10,894 nt of DNA from a virus (IMGVR_UViG_2660238349_000010); one strand, 5' to 3'; shown: positions 661 to 10,894, numbered from the stretch's first letter. Notes: generated by a model not told the origin, from the sequence alone. Made by a program: numbers and translations.

Positions 661-694
661 TCTCGCCCAGGGTTACTTACCGAGCCTCGCTTTA

Positions 695-781
695 TGATGC
701 GCCGCGCGATAAATGCACTCTATCTTGTGCGATAAATGGCATCCACGCGGCGTTTCATTATTTGAAAAAGAATTACATTTC
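695..781. repeat. Putative transposable-phage right end (attR-like) with MuA-binding-site-like motifs
   Basis: Plus strand from 695 reads TGATGCGCCGCGCGATAAATGC... The first 22 bp match my recollection of the phage Mu right terminus (TGAAGCGGCGCACGAAAAACGC) at 17 of 22 positions. CGATAAATG occurs at 707-715 and again at 730-738, the second copy at almost the same distance from the end as the CGATAAATG block of Mu R2. A CGTTTCAT motif lies at 751-758. Comparison is from memory, not alignment. Confidence 0.5.
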
Positions 782-1345
782 AGGTTGCGTTATGACAGTC
801 CCAACAGGGTGGTAGCGGTAGATCGTTGACAGTCCAATATCATAGATAATTGCCAGCCGCTTTCTGTCATACCCTTTCTGGAGCAATCTTGCGATCTGCT
901 CATGCTGCTCCTTCGTCAGTTTCGGGCGACGTCCTCCAACTCTTCCTTGTGCTCGCGCAGCAGCCAGTCCTGCCAGCGTGCGCTCAACTATCAGTTCACG
1001 CTCCATTTCTGCCAGTGCACCCATCATATGAAAAAAGAACCTTCCCATCGGAGTGCTGGTATCGATTGAATCCGTCAGACTGCGAAAATTGACACCTTTT
1101 GCGCGTAGCTCTTCTGTGAGAGCAATGAGGTGTTTCATTCTTCTACCCAACCGATCCAGCTTCCAGACCACCAATGTATCCCCTCTTTTAAGGCACTTTA
1201 AAGCGCGTTTCAGGCCTGGTCGTTCCGACTTGGTTCCGCTCATTTTGTCCTCAAAAATCTGTTCACATCCTGCGCACATTAATGCATTGCGTTGCAAATC
1301 TGTGTTTTGGTCATTTGTTGACACACGTATGTAGCCAATCAGCAT
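773..1345 (-). CDS. pin: Serine recombinase, DNA invertase (Pin/Gin/Hin/Cin family)
   Basis: 190-aa product from ATG (minus) at 1345-1343, preceded by AGGGAG. N-terminus MLIGYIRVSTNDQNTDLQRNAL... with catalytic-serine motif, and C-terminal HTH region ...ELIVERTLAGLAAARAQGRVGGRRPKLT... typical of Hin/Gin invertases. The ORF-track extension to 1474 is rejected because the conserved invertase N-terminus starts at 1345 and the extension would run through the crossover site. Confidence 0.9.
   Translation of the reverse strand: MLIGYIRVSTNDQNTDLQRNALMCAGCEQIFEDKMSGTKSERPGLKRALKCLKRGDTLVVWKLDRLGRRMKHLIALTEELRAKGVNFRSLTDSIDTSTPMGRFFFHMMGALAEMERELIVERTLAGLAAARAQGRVGGRRPKLTKEQHEQIARLLQKGYDRKRLAIIYDIGLSTIYRYHPVGTVITQPEM
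1250..1335. promoter_or_regulatory. Putative Fis-dependent recombinational enhancer inside the 5' end of the invertase gene (position inferred by analogy)
   Basis: In Hin/Gin systems the enhancer lies in the first ~100 bp of the invertase coding sequence. The corresponding pin segment (sense: GTGTCAACAAATGACCAAAACACAGATTTGCAACGCAATGC) closely resembles what I recall of the hin enhancer region. Fis sites were not individually identified. Confidence 0.3.
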
Positions 1346-1399
1346 TAAAAATACTCCCTTTTGAGTGGTTAAAGTACTGAGATAATGTGGGGAGGATTT

Positions 1400-1425
1400 G
1401 AGAGATAAACGTTGGTTTGGGGGAA
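1400..1425 (+). other. Crossover site 1 (hix/gix-like, 12-bp half-sites around a 2-bp TT core), orientation +
   Basis: GAGAGATAAACG TT GGTTTGGGGGAA. Lies about 55 bp upstream of the pin start and exactly at the 5' boundary of cassette C. The right half-site is identical to that of site 3 on the opposite strand. Confidence 0.6.
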
Positions 1426-1920
1426 GGCTCTGCACTGCCTGTTGGTGTGCCTGTTCCATGGCCCACCGCCACACCGCCAGCAGGCTGGTTAAAGTGCGAC
1501 GGGCGCGCCTTTACAAAAGAACAATATCCTGTTCTGGCCAGAGTCTACCCGACCCTCCGTCTTCCCGATTTGCGCGGTGAGTTTATCCGTGGATGGGACG
1601 ACGGGCGCAAAGTTGATACGGGGCGTTCATTGCTAAGTGGTCAGGCTGCAACATTTATTCGTACAGCTTTGCAGGATTATTACGGTTACGATCTGAATAC
1701 TAATGTCAAAGTAGGTATCGCTTTTGCTACTGCTGATTCTGTTATAACCGTTGGAAACCCAGCTAATCCTAAAGCAGGAAATAATAGCGATTATGTTCCT
1801 GCATCAGCAGATAACTCTATAACGGGTATTCAAAGGACAGCGGAGGATAATTTTACCGGGGCATGGATATCAATGCGCCCCCGCAATGTTGCGTTTAATT
1901 ACATCGTAAGGGCCGCATAA
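1414..1920 (+). CDS. Silent alternative tail-fibre C-terminal cassette C (collar-domain tip); no start codon of its own, promoterless in this orientation
   Basis: Open frame from the site-1 core to TAA at 1918-1920 encoding GLGEGSALPVGVPVPWPTATPPAGWLKCDG...RPRNVAFNYIVRAA. The first ~70 aa and last ~14 aa are shared with the expressed fibre tip; the middle is divergent. Confidence 0.75.
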   Translation, partial: GLGEGSALPVGVPVPWPTATPPAGWLKCDGRAFTKEQYPVLARVYPTLRLPDLRGEFIRGWDDGRKVDTGRSLLSGQAATFIRTALQDYYGYDLNTNVKVGIAFATADSVITVGNPANPKAGNNSDYVPASADNSITGIQRTAEDNFTGAWISMRPRNVAFNYIVRAA

Positions 1921-1939
1921 AAACGTTGGTTTAGGAGAA
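1914..1939 (+). other. Crossover site 2 (hix/gix-like), orientation + (direct relative to site 1, inverted relative to site 3)
   Basis: CGCATAAAAACG TT GGTTTAGGAGAA. Overlaps the stop codon of cassette C and is the 5' boundary of cassette B. Confidence 0.55.
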
Positions 1940-2443
1940 GGCTCGGCGCTACCCGTTGGTGTGCCTGTTCCGTGGCCCACCGCCACACCGCCAGCAGGCT
2001 GGTTACAGTGCAACGGAGCTACGTTCACTAAAGAACAATATCCTGTTCTGGCCAGAGTCTACCCGACCCTCCGTCTTCCCGATTTACGCGGTGAGTTTAT
2101 CCGTGGATGGGACGACGGGCGCAAAGTTGATACAGGACGTAAGTTGCTGTCCGCACAAGGGGCAACGCTGTTAAGAACAGCAATGCTGGATTATTATAAC
2201 CAGGACACTACGGGAACCTCGGGGATAGTCGGCATGGGATTCAACAATGAAGATTCCATTACAGACCTTCGTGAGGGCAGCTTTAAAATGCCGGACGGGA
2301 CAACATTCAGCGATCCTGTCGTGGCAATGTCAGACAATGGTATGCAGGCTACTATTCTGACCTCTATCAGAAGCGGGTATGCGAAGGGTATCACTGTCAG
2401 ACCCCGTAGCATTGCACTTAATTACATTGTGAGGGCAGTTTAA
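1928..2443 (+). CDS. Silent alternative tail-fibre C-terminal cassette B (collar-domain tip), translationally coupled to the downstream tfa
   Basis: Open frame from the site-2 core encoding GLGEGSALPVGVPVPWPTATPPAGWLQCNGATF...RPRSIALNYIVRAV. Its TAA at 2441-2443 overlaps the tfa ATG at 2443 by 1 nt (TAATG). Its first ~200 bp are nearly identical to the reverse complement of 3330-3541. Confidence 0.75.
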   Translation, partial: GLGEGSALPVGVPVPWPTATPPAGWLQCNGATFTKEQYPVLARVYPTLRLPDLRGEFIRGWDDGRKVDTGRKLLSAQGATLLRTAMLDYYNQDTTGTSGIVGMGFNNEDSITDLREGSFKMPDGTTFSDPVVAMSDNGMQATILTSIRSGYAKGITVRPRSIALNYIVRAV

Positions 2444-3057
2444 TGAGTAACACTGCAGTTCTGGATGAAAACGGTATCGCCACTGTAGCGGGCGAGATCA
2501 CTGTATATCACTATGACGAGGAAACCCGGGAATACACCTCATCCTCTGTGGAGTATCTCGCCCTTGGGGTGGGTACTCCGGCACATTCGTGCGCCGATGC
2601 ACCGCCGGAGGCAATTTCGGGTTACGTGGTTTGCCGGACTGCCACGCTGAACGGGTGGGAGCATGTGCCTGATCACCGCGGCGAGACGGTATACAGCACG
2701 GAGAACGGTAACCCCGTTCTGATTACCCAACCGGGTGATTACCCGGCGGACACCACCACAAAACAGCCGGCCACGCCATGGGATACCTGGAACGGTGAGG
2801 CGTGGGTAACCGATACTGAACGGCAGCGAGCCGCAGAACTGGAGGTTGCCAGACAGCAACGCCAGCAACGGGTGAAACAGGCGATGGCGTCCGTCGATCT
2901 TATCAACCTCAAACTGCGTGCTGGTCGCAGTCTGACACCAGAAGAAACGGCAAAACTGAACGCCGTGCTGGATTATATCGACGAGCTGAACGCACTGGAT
3001 ATCAGCACGGCACCTGAAATCAGCTGGCCGGAAGCGCCACTGGCACTTGCCAGCTGA
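2443..3057 (+). CDS. tfa: Tail fibre assembly protein (Tfa/gpG/U-like chaperone), cognate to cassette B
   Basis: 204-aa ORF immediately after cassette B with stop/start overlap. Size, position and acidic C-terminal region (…LNAVLDYIDELNALD…) fit the tail-fibre-assembly family. Converges on the fibre gene, stop to stop, with a 6-bp gap. Confidence 0.7.
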   Translation: MSNTAVLDENGIATVAGEITVYHYDEETREYTSSSVEYLALGVGTPAHSCADAPPEAISGYVVCRTATLNGWEHVPDHRGETVYSTENGNPVLITQPGDYPADTTTKQPATPWDTWNGEAWVTDTERQRAAELEVARQQRQQRVKQAMASVDLINLKLRAGRSLTPEETAKLNAVLDYIDELNALDISTAPEISWPEAPLALAS

Positions 3058-3063
3058 ACGGTA

Positions 3064-4656
3064 TCACGCCGCCCTCACGATATAGTTAAACGCGATATTG
3101 CGGGGGCGGGTTATGTTAAAGAATGCTCCGTTTAATTCGGCTTTTGCGCGACTGTTTGTTCCACCCAGAATTGCGTACCACAAATAATCGCTACGGTAAT
3201 TCCCCGCAAACACCTTATCGCCGCCATAGTCAATATTATTTCCGTTACTCATGTACGAGATATCCAGCGAAGAATCGTTATCGTCATGACCGCCGACCAG
3301 TGTACCTTTCTGCCATGAAAGCAACTTACGCCCCTCGTCAATCTTGCGCCCGTCGTCCCATCCACGGATAAACTCACCGCGTAAATCGGGAAGACGGAGG
3401 GTCGGGTAGACTCTGGCCAGAACAGGATATTGTTCTTTGGTGAACGTAGCTCCGTTGCACTGTAACCAGCCTGCTGGCGGTGTGGCGGTGGGCCACGGAA
3501 CAGGCACACCAACAGGCAATGCAGAGCCTTCCCCCAAACCAAGGTAATTGAGGACATCTTTTATACTGCCCTTAGCGATAATAGCGCGACCAATAGCTGT
3601 AAGGGTTGCCAGCGCTGCGCGGTCTGCTCCGGTAAAATAAGGCAACCGATCTGCTGCAGTGGCAAGTCCTGCCAGAGCAGTGAGCGTGGCATCTGCCGGT
3701 TGTTTTCCGTTTGCCAGATCGTATGCAGCCTTGACCGCTTTCGGTGTGGCGGCCAGTATTTCAGACGTGCTGTTGATGGCACTGCTCAATTGTATGGTGC
3801 CTTTTGCCGTCAGCGAGGCAGCAGGCACTCCCGTTATCTGACTCCACGGGTGAGTGTGGCTGACGGGCGCCTTGCCGGCTGCAAGGTCGTATGCAGCCTT
3901 GACCGCCTTCGGCGTGGCAGCCTCAGTTTCTGATTGACTGTCCGTGGCGCTGCTCAGTTGTACGGTGCCTTTTGCCGTCAGCGAGGCAGCAGGCACTCCC
4001 GTTATCTGACTCCACGGGTGAGTGTGGCTGACGGGGGCCTTGCCGGCAGCCAGGTCATATGCAGCCTTGACGGCCTTTGGTGTGGCGGCCAGCGTTTCAG
4101 AGGTGCTGTTGGTGGCACTGCTCAGTTGTACGATCCCTTTACGGGTCGTTGTTGCATCCTGGGCTGTGTATTTTCCCCGGGCCAGATCATACGCGATTTT
4201 CACAGCCTTCGGCGTGGCAGCCTCAGTTTCTGATTGACTGTCCGTGGCACTGCTCAGCTGTACGGTGCCTTTTGCCGTCAGCGAGGCAGCAGGCACTCCC
4301 GTTATCTGACTCCACGGGTGAGTGTGACTGACGGGTGCCTTGCCGGCTGCAAGGTCGTATGCAGCCTTGACGGCTTTTGGTGTGGCGGCCAGCGTTTCAG
4401 AGGTGCTGTTGGTGGCACTGCTCAGTTGGGTGAACCCCTTAGCTGTCAGTGTCGCGTCCGGGTGGTTACGGGAACGTACGTGTTCAGCCAGTGACTGTGC
4501 GGCTTCCTCCGTTTTTTTCTTCAGCCATTTCGTCCTGTTTGCCAGTTGCCGGGGGGCTCGATTTGATATCCCGTCAGCACCACCCAGAACCGGATCTGAT
4601 GTCTCCAGTTGATAGATTTTTTCTTCCCACTTTTCTGTTTCATTCAGGTTTCCCAT
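3064..4656 (-). CDS. Tail fibre protein (P2 gpH-like N-terminus and shaft repeats; collar-domain C-terminal tip = cassette A currently fused)
   Basis: 530 aa from ATG (minus) at 4656-4654; the ORF track starts 2 codons earlier at TTG 4662. Overlaps the gpI stop. Five copies of the motif TAKGxxQLSSATxSxSETxAATPKAVKxAYDLAxGK, and ...KQPADATLTALAGLATAADRLPYFTG..., recalled as characteristic of P2 H. C-terminal 159 aa after site 3 form the variable tip. Confidence 0.9.
   Translation of the reverse strand: MGNLNETEKWEEKIYQLETSDPVLGGADGISNRAPRQLANRTKWLKKKTEEAAQSLAEHVRSRNHPDATLTAKGFTQLSSATNSTSETLAATPKAVKAAYDLAAGKAPVSHTHPWSQITGVPAASLTAKGTVQLSSATDSQSETEAATPKAVKIAYDLARGKYTAQDATTTRKGIVQLSSATNSTSETLAATPKAVKAAYDLAAGKAPVSHTHPWSQITGVPAASLTAKGTVQLSSATDSQSETEAATPKAVKAAYDLAAGKAPVSHTHPWSQITGVPAASLTAKGTIQLSSAINSTSEILAATPKAVKAAYDLANGKQPADATLTALAGLATAADRLPYFTGADRAALATLTAIGRAIIAKGSIKDVLNYLGLGEGSALPVGVPVPWPTATPPAGWLQCNGATFTKEQYPVLARVYPTLRLPDLRGEFIRGWDDGRKIDEGRKLLSWQKGTLVGGHDDNDSSLDISYMSNGNNIDYGGDKVFAGNYRSDYLWYAILGGTNSRAKAELNGAFFNITRPRNIAFNYIVRAA
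3529..3554 (-). other. Crossover site 3 (hix/gix-like) inside the fibre gene at the constant/variable junction
   Basis: Minus strand reads TCCTCAATTACC TT GGTTTGGGGGAA, encoding LNYLGLGE. The core TT sits in the same codon positions as in sites 1 and 2, so either inversion gives an in-frame fusion. Confidence 0.6.
3700..4450 (-). repeat. In-frame coding tandem repeats of the fibre shaft (units of 36/56/44/56/56 aa)
   Basis: Near-identical DNA blocks, for example about 3900-4030 versus 4200-4330 (about 130 bp with about 3 mismatches, 300 bp apart). Visible in the ORF track as a repeating plus-strand shadow ORF (MTVRG[A/T]AQLYGAFCRQRGSRHSRYLTPRVSV...) at 3934 and 4234. Confidence 0.85.
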
Positions 4657-9575: not shown

Positions 9576-10894
9576 CAGCGGTACTCCTTACGTTGTTTCT
9601 GAGCCAGCAGACGCTCCAGCATTTTTTCCAGCTCATGCAGACTCATATTCAGGGCACCAGTCAGTCCTGCAGGCGCTGTGGTTTCCCTGCCATTGAGGAA
9701 AAACTGAGGATTAAAGCTGACCTGGATACCACCAGACGTTCCACCGCCGGTTGCAGCTGCACCACGGCCTGAATATCCGGCAGCCAGGATTTCAGGCGAG
9801 GGGATACGGGGAACATCCGGTGTCATCTCATTTGCCAGACGTTGCCCTGGTAAAATCGATGCCCGGGTGGAGAGCGGAATAACGGGCATGGAAGACAAAC
9901 TATTGATTACGGCTCCGATCGCATTTTTAGCAGACGACATAAACCCATTGATATCGGGCAACGGCATACTGAAGCGAACACCTGAAGTGTTATCCCGTAT
10001 TTCTGGCCCCTGAATGCTCACGGGCATTCTGGGGAGCAGTTCACTGGCCATTCGCTGCCCGGCCAGAGCTGCAAGCGGAGTGGTCCGCTGCAGGCCAATG
10101 GCGGCCCCCTGCGCGATATTGTCACCAAAGCCCATAAACACGCGGCTCGGCGAATGAATGCCCAGCTTTTCGCTGAACCAGCCACTGATGCTGTCACCCA
10201 TTCCGGTTACACTGGATTTGAGCGACTCCCATTTGTTTTTGATACCGTTAATCAGACCGTCGACAAGATGGCCACCGAAGTCGGTGAACTTTGCCGGCAG
10301 ATCAACACCAAGATATTTCAGCGCAGCTGCAAAGGCTTTATAGAGCAGACCTGCCGGCGACCAGTTAATCAGCAGCTTACCAGTTCCCGCGATACCGCCG
10401 TTAAAGGCTTCCTGAATGTCAGCCCAGCACTGTTTAAACCAGCTACTGATGCTGTCACCCATTCCGGTTACACTGGATTTGAGCGACCCCCATTTGTTTT
10501 TGATACCGTTAATCAGACCGTCGATAAGATGGCCACCGAAGTCGGTGAACTTTGCCGGCAGAGCAACGCCGAAATATTTCAGCGCAGCCGCAAAGGCTTT
10601 ATAGAGCAGGCCTGCCGGCGACCAGTTAATCAGCAACTTACCAATTCCCACAATGCCGCCGTTAAAGGCTTCCTGAATGTCAGCCCAGCGCTGTTTAAAC
10701 CAGCTACTGATGCTGTCACCCATTCCGGTTACACTGGATTTGAGCGACCCCCATTTGATTTTGATACCGTTAATCAGACCGTCGATAAGATGGCCACCGA
10801 AGTCGGTGAACTTTGCCGGCAGAGCAACGCCGAAATATTTCAGCGCAGCCGCAAAGGCTTTATAGAGCAGGCCTGCCGGCGACCAGTTAATCAG
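9575..10894 (-). CDS. Tail tape measure protein, 3' part (5' end lies beyond the window)
   Basis: Long minus-strand frame open to the window edge, directly upstream of the gpU/X/D genes. Contains 87-aa tandem repeats and a Gly/Ala-rich C-terminal region. Assignment rests on synteny and repeat architecture. Confidence 0.7.
   Translation of the reverse strand: MINWSPAGLLYKAFAAALKYFGVALPAKFTDFGGHLIDGLINGIKIKWGSLKSSVTGMGDSISSWFKQRWADIQEAFNGGIVGIGKLLINWSPAGLLYKAFAAALKYFGVALPAKFTDFGGHLIDGLINGIKNKWGSLKSSVTGMGDSISSWFKQCWADIQEAFNGGIAGTGKLLINWSPAGLLYKAFAAALKYLGVDLPAKFTDFGGHLVDGLINGIKNKWESLKSSVTGMGDSISGWFSEKLGIHSPSRVFMGFGDNIAQGAAIGLQRTTPLAALAGQRMASELLPRMPVSIQGPEIRDNTSGVRFSMPLPDINGFMSSAKNAIGAVINSLSSMPVIPLSTRASILPGQRLANEMTPDVPRIPSPEILAAGYSGRGAAATGGGTSGGIQVSFNPQFFLNGRETTAPAGLTGALNMSLHELEKMLERLLAQKQRKEYR
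10174..10894 (-). repeat. 261-bp (87-aa) in-frame tandem repeat array within the tape-measure gene, truncated by the window end
   Basis: Units at about 10174-10434, 10435-10695 and 10696-10894+ with only a few substitutions. Seen in the ORF track as plus-strand shadow ORFs at 10158, 10416 and 10677, all containing ...LNQ[L/P]LMLSPIPVTLDLSD... Confidence 0.85.

Follow-up and report, generated by a model that had tools for sequence, protein, structure and literature searches.

The stretch of 10,894 nucleotides (nt) from IMGVR_UViG_2660238349_000010 that was analysed here, hereafter the window, carries a phage tail-fibre gene surrounded by the parts of a DNA inversion system (Table 1). Specifically, the fibre coding sequence (CDS) annotated in RefSeq occupies positions 3064-4656 of the minus strand and consists of a constant N-terminal part joined to a C-terminal cassette, A. 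Two further cassettes, B and C, are found on the opposite strand and do not possess the fibre N-terminal part. The group is completed by a single tail-fibre assembly gene, tfa, by the gene of a serine DNA invertase, pin, and by three copies of a 26-bp element that has the features of a crossover site. A sequence-only reading of the same DNA had proposed three such sites, two of them in the same orientation and the third inverted, together with three alternative fibre ends, A being joined to the fibre and B and C silent on the other strand; sites and cassettes were indeed found at the positions that it had assigned to them. Taken as a whole, the locus very probably works as a tail-fibre switch of the multiple-inversion type, located where a BcepMu-like transposable prophage of Escherichia coli has its right end, and we hold this interpretation with high confidence.

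Table 1. Features of the tail-fibre inversion locus, in window coordinates
Feature	Position	Strand	Remarks
Prophage right end	689-700		host flank to 694 (GCTTTA, one copy of the 6-bp target duplication); phage end TGATGCG... from 695
pin, serine DNA invertase, Din (Gin/Hin/Cin/Pin) family	773-1345	-	190 aa, intact; Pfam Resolvase E=8e-51, HTH_7
pin 5' part, putative Fis-dependent recombinational enhancer region	1146-1345	-	proposed from homology with the Gin, Hin and Cin genes only
Site 1	1400-1425	+	GAGAGATAAACG TT GGTTTGGGGGAA; core TT 1412-1413; adjoins pin
Cassette C, alternative C-terminus	1414-1920	+	168 aa; Pfam Collar; silent here
Site 2	1914-1939	+	CGCATAAAAACG TT GGTTTAGGAGAA; core TT 1926-1927; overlaps the C stop codon and the start of B
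Cassette B, alternative C-terminus	1928-2443	+	171 aa; Pfam Collar; silent here
tfa, tail-fibre assembly (chaperone)	2443-3057	+	Pfam Caudo_TAP E=3.5e-28; RefSeq 'tail fiber assembly protein'
Cassette A, present fibre C-terminus	3064-3540	-	158 aa; expressed state
Site 3	3529-3554	-	reverse complement TCCTCAATTACC TT GGTTTGGGGGAA; plus-strand core AA 3541-3542
Constant N-terminal fibre part	3543-4656	-	about 372 aa; five Phage_fiber_2 repeats, Pfam E=1e-93

The crossover sites were delimited on a 12+2+12 layout, and the gix sites of phage Mu and the pix sites of e14, extracted at the annotated segment boundaries in NC_000929 and NC_000913, were used as references. The window contains just three copies of the motif TTCYCCYAAACCAASGT, two on the minus strand (1409-1425 and 1923-1939) and one on the plus strand (3529-3545), whereas 200 shuffles yielded none. 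Sites 1 and 2 are direct repeats, while site 3, placed within the fibre gene at the boundary between its constant and variable parts, is inverted with respect to both. In addition, each of them shows the organization that is characteristic of Din-family sites, namely a length of 26 bp in which a 2-bp core, identical among the partners, separates two 12-bp half-sites that form an imperfect inverted repeat. The sites of e14, TTCTCCCAAACC AA GGTTTTCGAGAG and TTCTCCCAAACC AA CGTTTATGAAAA, have in common with those of the window the 12-2-12 layout, the conserved inner half-site TTCYCCYAAACC and the AA/TT core. The gix sequence at the boundaries of the Mu G segment, TTCCTGTAAACC GA GGTTTTGGATAA, is alike in layout and in the conserved inner half-site, whereas its core is GA/TC. 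Alignment with known Din-family sites, which had been suggested as a check of the sequence-only reading, therefore gave the agreement in layout and inner half-site with both Mu gix and e14 pix that the reading leads one to expect.

The product of pin has the architecture of a Din-family enzyme, in which an N-terminal resolvase domain, with its catalytic serine at about residue 9-10, is followed by a helix-turn-helix at the C-terminus. In particular, the Gin structures 4m6f and 3uj3 match Pin residues 1-181 (E=2e-93), the DNA-binding domain of Hin (1hcr) is matched as well (E=1e-10), and the catalytic-serine motif GYIRVSTNDQ is conserved. Pin is identical to Gin in 139 of 180 residues (77%), to PinE of e14 in 139 of 182 (76%) and to the invertase of a related locus in enteropathogenic E. 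coli (EPEC) in 159 of 184 (86%). At every locus examined the annotated invertase is WP_000904922.1, and the protein is identical throughout. These data are in keeping with the earlier proposal of a Pin/Gin-type invertase as the driver of the switch, and the inactivating change in pin that had been named as a possible objection did not appear, the open reading frame (ORF) being intact. A longer ORF of 233 aa (773-1474), which takes a GTG at 1474 as its first codon and extends through site 1, was rejected as an artefact of ORF calling; the true first codon is an ATG at 1345, in agreement with Gin and with the RefSeq annotation (573 nt). Over its first 250 nt, pin can be aligned with gin, pinE and the invertase gene of EPEC, the mean column identity being 76%, and the distance from the core of site 1 to the start of pin is 67 bp, to be compared with the 68 bp between gixR and gin in Mu.

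From each site a repeat of 226-229 nt runs into the adjoining cassette, with an identity of 90-93% between cassettes, and the TT/AA core is found in one codon phase throughout. When inversion at the core dinucleotide was simulated, an in-frame fibre-B of 545 aa and an in-frame fibre-C of 542 aa were obtained, next to the 532 aa of fibre-A, and the junction reads ...NYL/GLGEGSALPVG... in all three proteins (the slash marks the point of fusion). The simulation thus reproduces what the sequence-only reading had anticipated from the common codon phase at GLGEGS, that is, fusion of B through sites 3 and 2 and of C through sites 3 and 1, both in frame. The first 78 residues are common to the three tips, with 69-74 of the 78 identical (88-95%), and within this collar segment there is a phage tail-collar domain that has its relative in the tip of T4 gp37. 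The last 14 residues, RPRN[IV]A[FL]NYIVRA[AV], are also common to the tips. Between these two stretches lies a central region of 65-80 residues, in which A is essentially unrelated to B or C and in which B and C are about 43% identical.

The constant part of the fibre contains repeats of its own (168/300 nt, 81-89% identical, at 3712-4462), which encode the five Phage_fiber_2 repeats and whose number varies among genomes, the fibre CDS ranging from 1593 to 1965 nt. Differing phage backbones were considered as the cause of matches that end at about 4140 or 4428 and were rejected, as the backbone is the same and it is the number of fibre repeats that differs.

A mechanism can be proposed in which the chemistry of strand exchange is borrowed from the Hin/Gin paradigm. 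Pin dimers would bind the three 26-bp sites and, with the help of Fis, bound to an enhancer within the 5' part of pin itself, would cleave at the central TT/AA dinucleotide; the half-sites would then be turned by 180 degrees and religated. Site 3 interrupts the fibre gene at the phase ...NYL/GLGEGS, and on the other strand sites 1 and 2 are each followed by a cassette that lacks a promoter. Inversion between sites 3 and 2 (1.6 kb) in this way replaces tip A with tip B, and inversion between sites 3 and 1 (2.1 kb) replaces tip A with tip C. Moreover, the large inversion leaves sites 1 and 2 mutually inverted, so that the segment made of B, tfa and A can flip in its turn. To describe the outcomes, L denotes the flank on the pin side, X the segment from site 1 to site 2 (with C), Y the segment from site 2 to site 3 (with B, tfa and A) and R the fibre part that remains constant, with lower case for an inverted segment. 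The predicted states form a closed cycle, LXYR - LXyR - LYxR - LyxR - LXYR, in which four DNA isomers encode three fibre proteins: LXYR, the state of the window, gives fibre-A, LXyR gives fibre-B, and LyxR and LYxR both give fibre-C.

All four arrangements are present in complete E. coli genomes. The window itself corresponds to positions 1042750-1053720 of strain M-17 (NZ_CP068394.1) at 99.8-100% identity. M-17 holds the LXYR copy of the window, and a second copy near rstA is the predicted LyxR isomer at 100.000% identity over 4006 nt. The same perfect match over 4006 nt was obtained between the predicted LXyR isomer and SF-173, and KS21 carries one LyxR and one LYxR copy, cassette C being joined to the fibre in these natural isomers. 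When whole isomers were searched for, LXYR was matched over its full length in at least 29 genomes, LXyR in about 46, LyxR in about 17 and LYxR in at least 30. Searches with the junctions, in which two-cassette forms are also counted, gave 327 genomes for fibre-B, 103 for fibre-A and 78 for fibre-C; the fibre-C junction query produced two-piece matches of 1087 nt, which were resolved by means of the whole-isomer queries. The two-cassette form, observed in several genomes including NZ_CP124334.1, is without exactly the 514-bp segment between sites 1 and 2 (1412-1927, cassette C).

A further case is provided by two near-identical genomes, p11A (NZ_CP049077.2 2420857-2424057) and p11B (NZ_CP103755.1 2420860-2424060), which carry the module at the same chromosomal position, the former as LYxR and the latter as LXyR. 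These states are one inversion between sites 1 and 3 apart, and the pair captures, as a snapshot taken in nature, the switching of a single lineage. Comparison of genomes thereby reveals inversion between inverted sites with exchange at the core, as is proper to the Din family. Likewise, the hallmarks of a multiple-inversion system are found together at the locus: more than two sites served by one recombinase, overlapping segments of 1.6 and 2.1 kb, and more than two C-termini, with a third inversion becoming possible following the large flip. The multi-site inversion mechanism of the sequence-only reading is hence upheld, as all the isomers that it predicted exist in nature with breakpoints at the expected cores. 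Its count requires correction, in that three isomers had been foreseen and there are four, fibre-C being found in two arrangements that differ by an inversion between sites 1 and 2, after these have been turned against each other.

The natural genomes also reveal where the strands are exchanged. The breakpoint of the large inversion is site 1 (in the second copy of M-17, KS21, AR_0081 and others) and that of the small inversion is site 2, where single-nucleotide polymorphisms place the exchange in an interval of 7 nt. In particular, the nearest informative differences for the exchange between sites 2 and 3 are located at -1 and +7 from the core, and together with the 100% match of SF-173 they confine the crossover to the 7 nt TTGGTTT, core included. 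The crossover between sites 1 and 3 is confined to 23 nt within the 226-229-nt repeat, and no chimeric junctions were detected in the six loci examined. The narrowing of the exchange to a few nucleotides around the core argues against general homologous recombination, that is, against the view that the isomers are made by RecA-dependent recombination between the 226-229-nt inverted repeats, with the sites and pin irrelevant or vestigial. Such a view can appeal to repeats that are long, 90-93% identical and placed at the start of the cassettes. It can also appeal to a patch in cassette B at 2006-2029 (+80 to +103 from the core of site 2), which is A-like in the window and C-like in KS21, AR_0081 and AVS0786; this looks like gene conversion among the conserved collar regions of the cassettes, and it indicates that some homologous exchange or gene conversion among them occurs. 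Nevertheless, the isomers coincide at 100% identity with models crossed exactly at the core, the exchange between sites 2 and 3 is restricted to 7 of 229 nt, and junctions of chimeric type are missing from the six loci. Furthermore, the homologous EPEC module inverts at high frequency in single-colony cultures, which is typical of site-specific inversion (PMC4272514). We consequently regard homologous recombination as a very unlikely source of the isomers.

It might also be supposed that the module is a fossil, in which old inversions are recorded while pin or the sites no longer function in this copy. The degenerate outer half of site 3, the present antisense position of tfa and the fact that switching of this particular copy is deduced from other genomes would all suit such a condition. 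On the other hand, the pin ORF is intact and its protein identical at every locus examined, the two M-17 copies are one inversion apart and otherwise 100% identical over 4 kb, the clonal pair p11A/p11B is found in different isomers, and each of the four isomers is frequent in a group of prophages with 97-100% identity. The M-17 copies, the p11 pair and the abundance of the isomers call for inversion that is very recent and repeated, and a fossil state is highly improbable. As for the chance that the arrangements are assembly artefacts, due to repeat-induced misjoins in complete genomes, repeats of about 230 nt in a 2-kb region and several prophage copies per genome could mislead short-read assemblers. 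However, more than 120 independent complete genomes display only four arrangements, all of them obeying the logic of the sites and with exact junctions; an assembler confronted with a mixed population picks one real isomer and invents none; and four variants were confirmed by polymerase chain reaction (PCR) at the homologous EPEC locus (PMC4272514). An artefact of this kind is extremely unlikely.

There remain several points that weigh against the inversion switch as proposed. In its outer half, GGTAATTGAGGA, site 3 does not conform to the GGTTT consensus and is a weaker match, a trait that recurs in the poorer outer half GGTAATCAAGAA of an EPEC site known to recombine (PMC4272514). Dependence on Fis and on an enhancer would be expected from homology and from the Hin-Gin paradigm, by which the enhancer is assigned to a region rather than pinpointed. 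Ongoing switching in the copy of the window is suggested by comparative genomics, and the binding of different receptors by the three tips is suggested by the examples of Mu, P1 and Enterobacter phage FRphi, the divergence of the tips being what was observed. The two-cassette form may be an ancestral two-site switch or may derive from deletion between the direct repeats of sites 1 and 2. To these points those concerning tfa should be added. It is co-oriented with the fibre operon in LXyR and LyxR only, and it is antisense in LXYR, as in the window, and in LYxR. Moreover, a sigma-70 scan for a plus-strand promoter that could serve tfa in the A state found none between pin and site 1, in a scan that is blind to Mor/C-type late promoters and that overall gave fewer matches than in shuffles. 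The antisense position of tfa and the lack of a promoter-like site imply that not every isomer is necessarily productive.

The gene tfa is the only assembly gene for the three tips and lies directly 3' of cassette B. Its antisense position could have different explanations: tip A may need no chaperone, Tfa may be expressed in some other way, or some states may produce fibres devoid of chaperone. A bolder idea, which we consider rather unlikely, is that inversion of Y also switches the supply of chaperone on and off, so that fibre-C would be made with or without Tfa and fibre-A would fold without it. The position of tfa is the same in the EPEC module, where Tfa is identical in 120 of 202 residues (59%). 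The fact that this layout is kept in a BcepMu-like and in the EPEC P2-like module despite a DNA divergence of about 25-30% suggests that it is selected and not accidental.

With regard to the genomic setting, positions 1-660 of the window correspond to the host gene yccA, and the spacer between tusE and yccA is the insertion point of a prophage of about 37 kb, of which the window from 695 onward represents the right end. The placement of this end is based on matches in other genomes, which begin at 690-695, and on comparison with the empty tusE-yccA spacer of K-12: TGAT...GATAAATG is found at both prophage ends, and the 6-bp target duplication TAAAGC of the empty site brackets the insertion. 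The remaining genes of the prophage include Mor, gp16, Gam, a MuB-like ATPase, a DDE transposase, a DUF935 portal and a Mu-F-like head protein, a set that identifies it as a BcepMu-like transposable phage; the head genes are followed by a P2-type tail module. Integration associated with a tRNA gene was considered and rejected, as the window is without tRNA genes and the phage is instead a transposable one with target-site duplication. Prophages of the same backbone are inserted at many other chromosomal positions, where irp2, flgA, yjjI, yecR and other genes are disrupted, and M-17, KS21, S21EC and DETEC-S566 contain two prophage copies each. Among the carriers of the module are the genomes of EC958 and JJ1887, of sequence type 131 (ST131). 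A search of the phage collection for a sequenced free phage with the module gave partial matches only, the best of them with 63% coverage (CP025887.1, an unannotated record). Finally, the tape-measure gene contains a tandem repeat of 261 nt in at least 2.8 copies of 96% identity, which extends from 10176 to 10894 and reaches the end of the window.

The interest of the module resides in its being a clean and well-documented example of its kind, on a transposable prophage that hundreds of E. coli genomes, ST131 included, have in common and whose four switch states can be read directly in public assemblies. A preprint on ST131 reported inversions and a 'translocation' in prophage fibre genes, including those of a Bcepmuvirus prophage with an invertase, and left them uninterpreted (10.1101/2022.05.07.487787); the switch accounts for these differences. 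It also carries a warning for annotation, as the 'partial' or orphan 'phage tail protein' genes beside an invertase are functional cassettes and not pseudogenes. In addition, the three receptor-binding tips, which nature already exchanges for one another and which have the collar and the C-terminal motif in common, could serve the engineering of phage host range. The feature that most deserves experimental study is the shared chaperone gene, the orientation of which changes with the switch.

In comparison with the classical two-site switches, the G segment of Mu with Gin and the P segment of e14 with Pin, the locus is alike in its 26-bp sites, in the 2-bp core and in the position of the switch at the boundary between constant and variable fibre parts. 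In the classical switches and in the window alike, the invertase gene directly adjoins the segment, at 67-68 bp from the closest site, and Mu further agrees with the window in that the switch occupies the right end of the transposable phage. The core dinucleotide, AA/TT, is the one of e14 and not the one of Mu. Both Mu and e14 differ, however, in that they have two sites and two tips with one assembly gene per tip (S-U/S'-U' and stfP-tfaP/stfE-tfaE, respectively), whereas the window has three sites, three tips and four isomers with one shared tfa.

Among systems with more than two sites, the classical case is Min of p15B. The element p15B is a P1-like plasmid prophage, likened here to the window by description, and it has six mix sites and many more isomers. 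In work of 1990 by Sandmeier et al. and by Iida et al. (cited in PMC5903667 and PMC6906374), Min is reported as a Din-family invertase acting on more than two crossover sites, with overlapping inversions that shuffle the 3' ends of a fibre gene. The comparison with p15B Min drawn in the sequence-only reading is in this respect an apt one. The shufflon of R64 relies on a tyrosine recombinase, Rci, and on 19-bp sfx repeats. It resembles the window in that multiple inversions swap the C-terminal segments of an adhesin (PilV). Since Pin is a serine invertase and its sites are of the 26-bp Din type, the module is shufflon-like in its working and lies outside the R64 family.

A closer parallel is offered by Enterobacter phage FRphi, another phage of another host that is likened here by description, in which a Gin-type recombinase generates three C-terminal fibre isoforms coexisting in lysogen and virion DNA (PMC13418256). 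The same study included a gin deletion control and locked variants, by which infection of the test host was traced to a single isoform, the one that uses FhuA (PMC13418256). The nearest precedent is the P2-like prophage of EPEC O127:H6 E2348/69, in which three inverted repeats and two overlapping inversions yield four variants with three C-termini (Goldberg 2014, PMC4272514); these variants coexist in single-colony cultures, as established by PCR and sequencing (PMC4272514). In the genome sequence (NC_011601.1) the sites are found at 1891695, 1892127 and 1893703. They are of the same type as those described here, consisting of TTCCCCCAAACC AA followed by GGTAATCAAGAA, CGTTTTCATGCT or CGTTTTCGTTTT. 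Gene order, three cassettes at GLGEGS and a single tfa beside one cassette are shared as well, and in both loci the invertase gene reads away from the outermost site. The EPEC locus differs from the window in having only about 70-76% DNA identity to it and different tip sequences; in addition, its direct sites are spaced by 432 bp instead of 514 bp, and its phage is described as P2-like, with the tape-measure gene on the strand opposite to the fibre, the phage of the window being a transposable BcepMu-like one. The 'Mu' invertible locus of EPEC was also considered as the closest relative and was discarded on account of its e14-like character, its two sites and its scant match to the window.

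The novelty that the sequence-only reading had implied with respect to two-site systems was overstated, given that the design of three repeats, four variants and three C-termini is that of EPEC (PMC4272514) and that FRphi (PMC13418256) is a further precedent. In other words, the module belongs to a known class, for which experiments had established the design in EPEC (2014) and FRphi (2025-26), and it introduces no new principle. In sequence, the EPEC locus is a diverged homologue of the same module, carried on another phage backbone.

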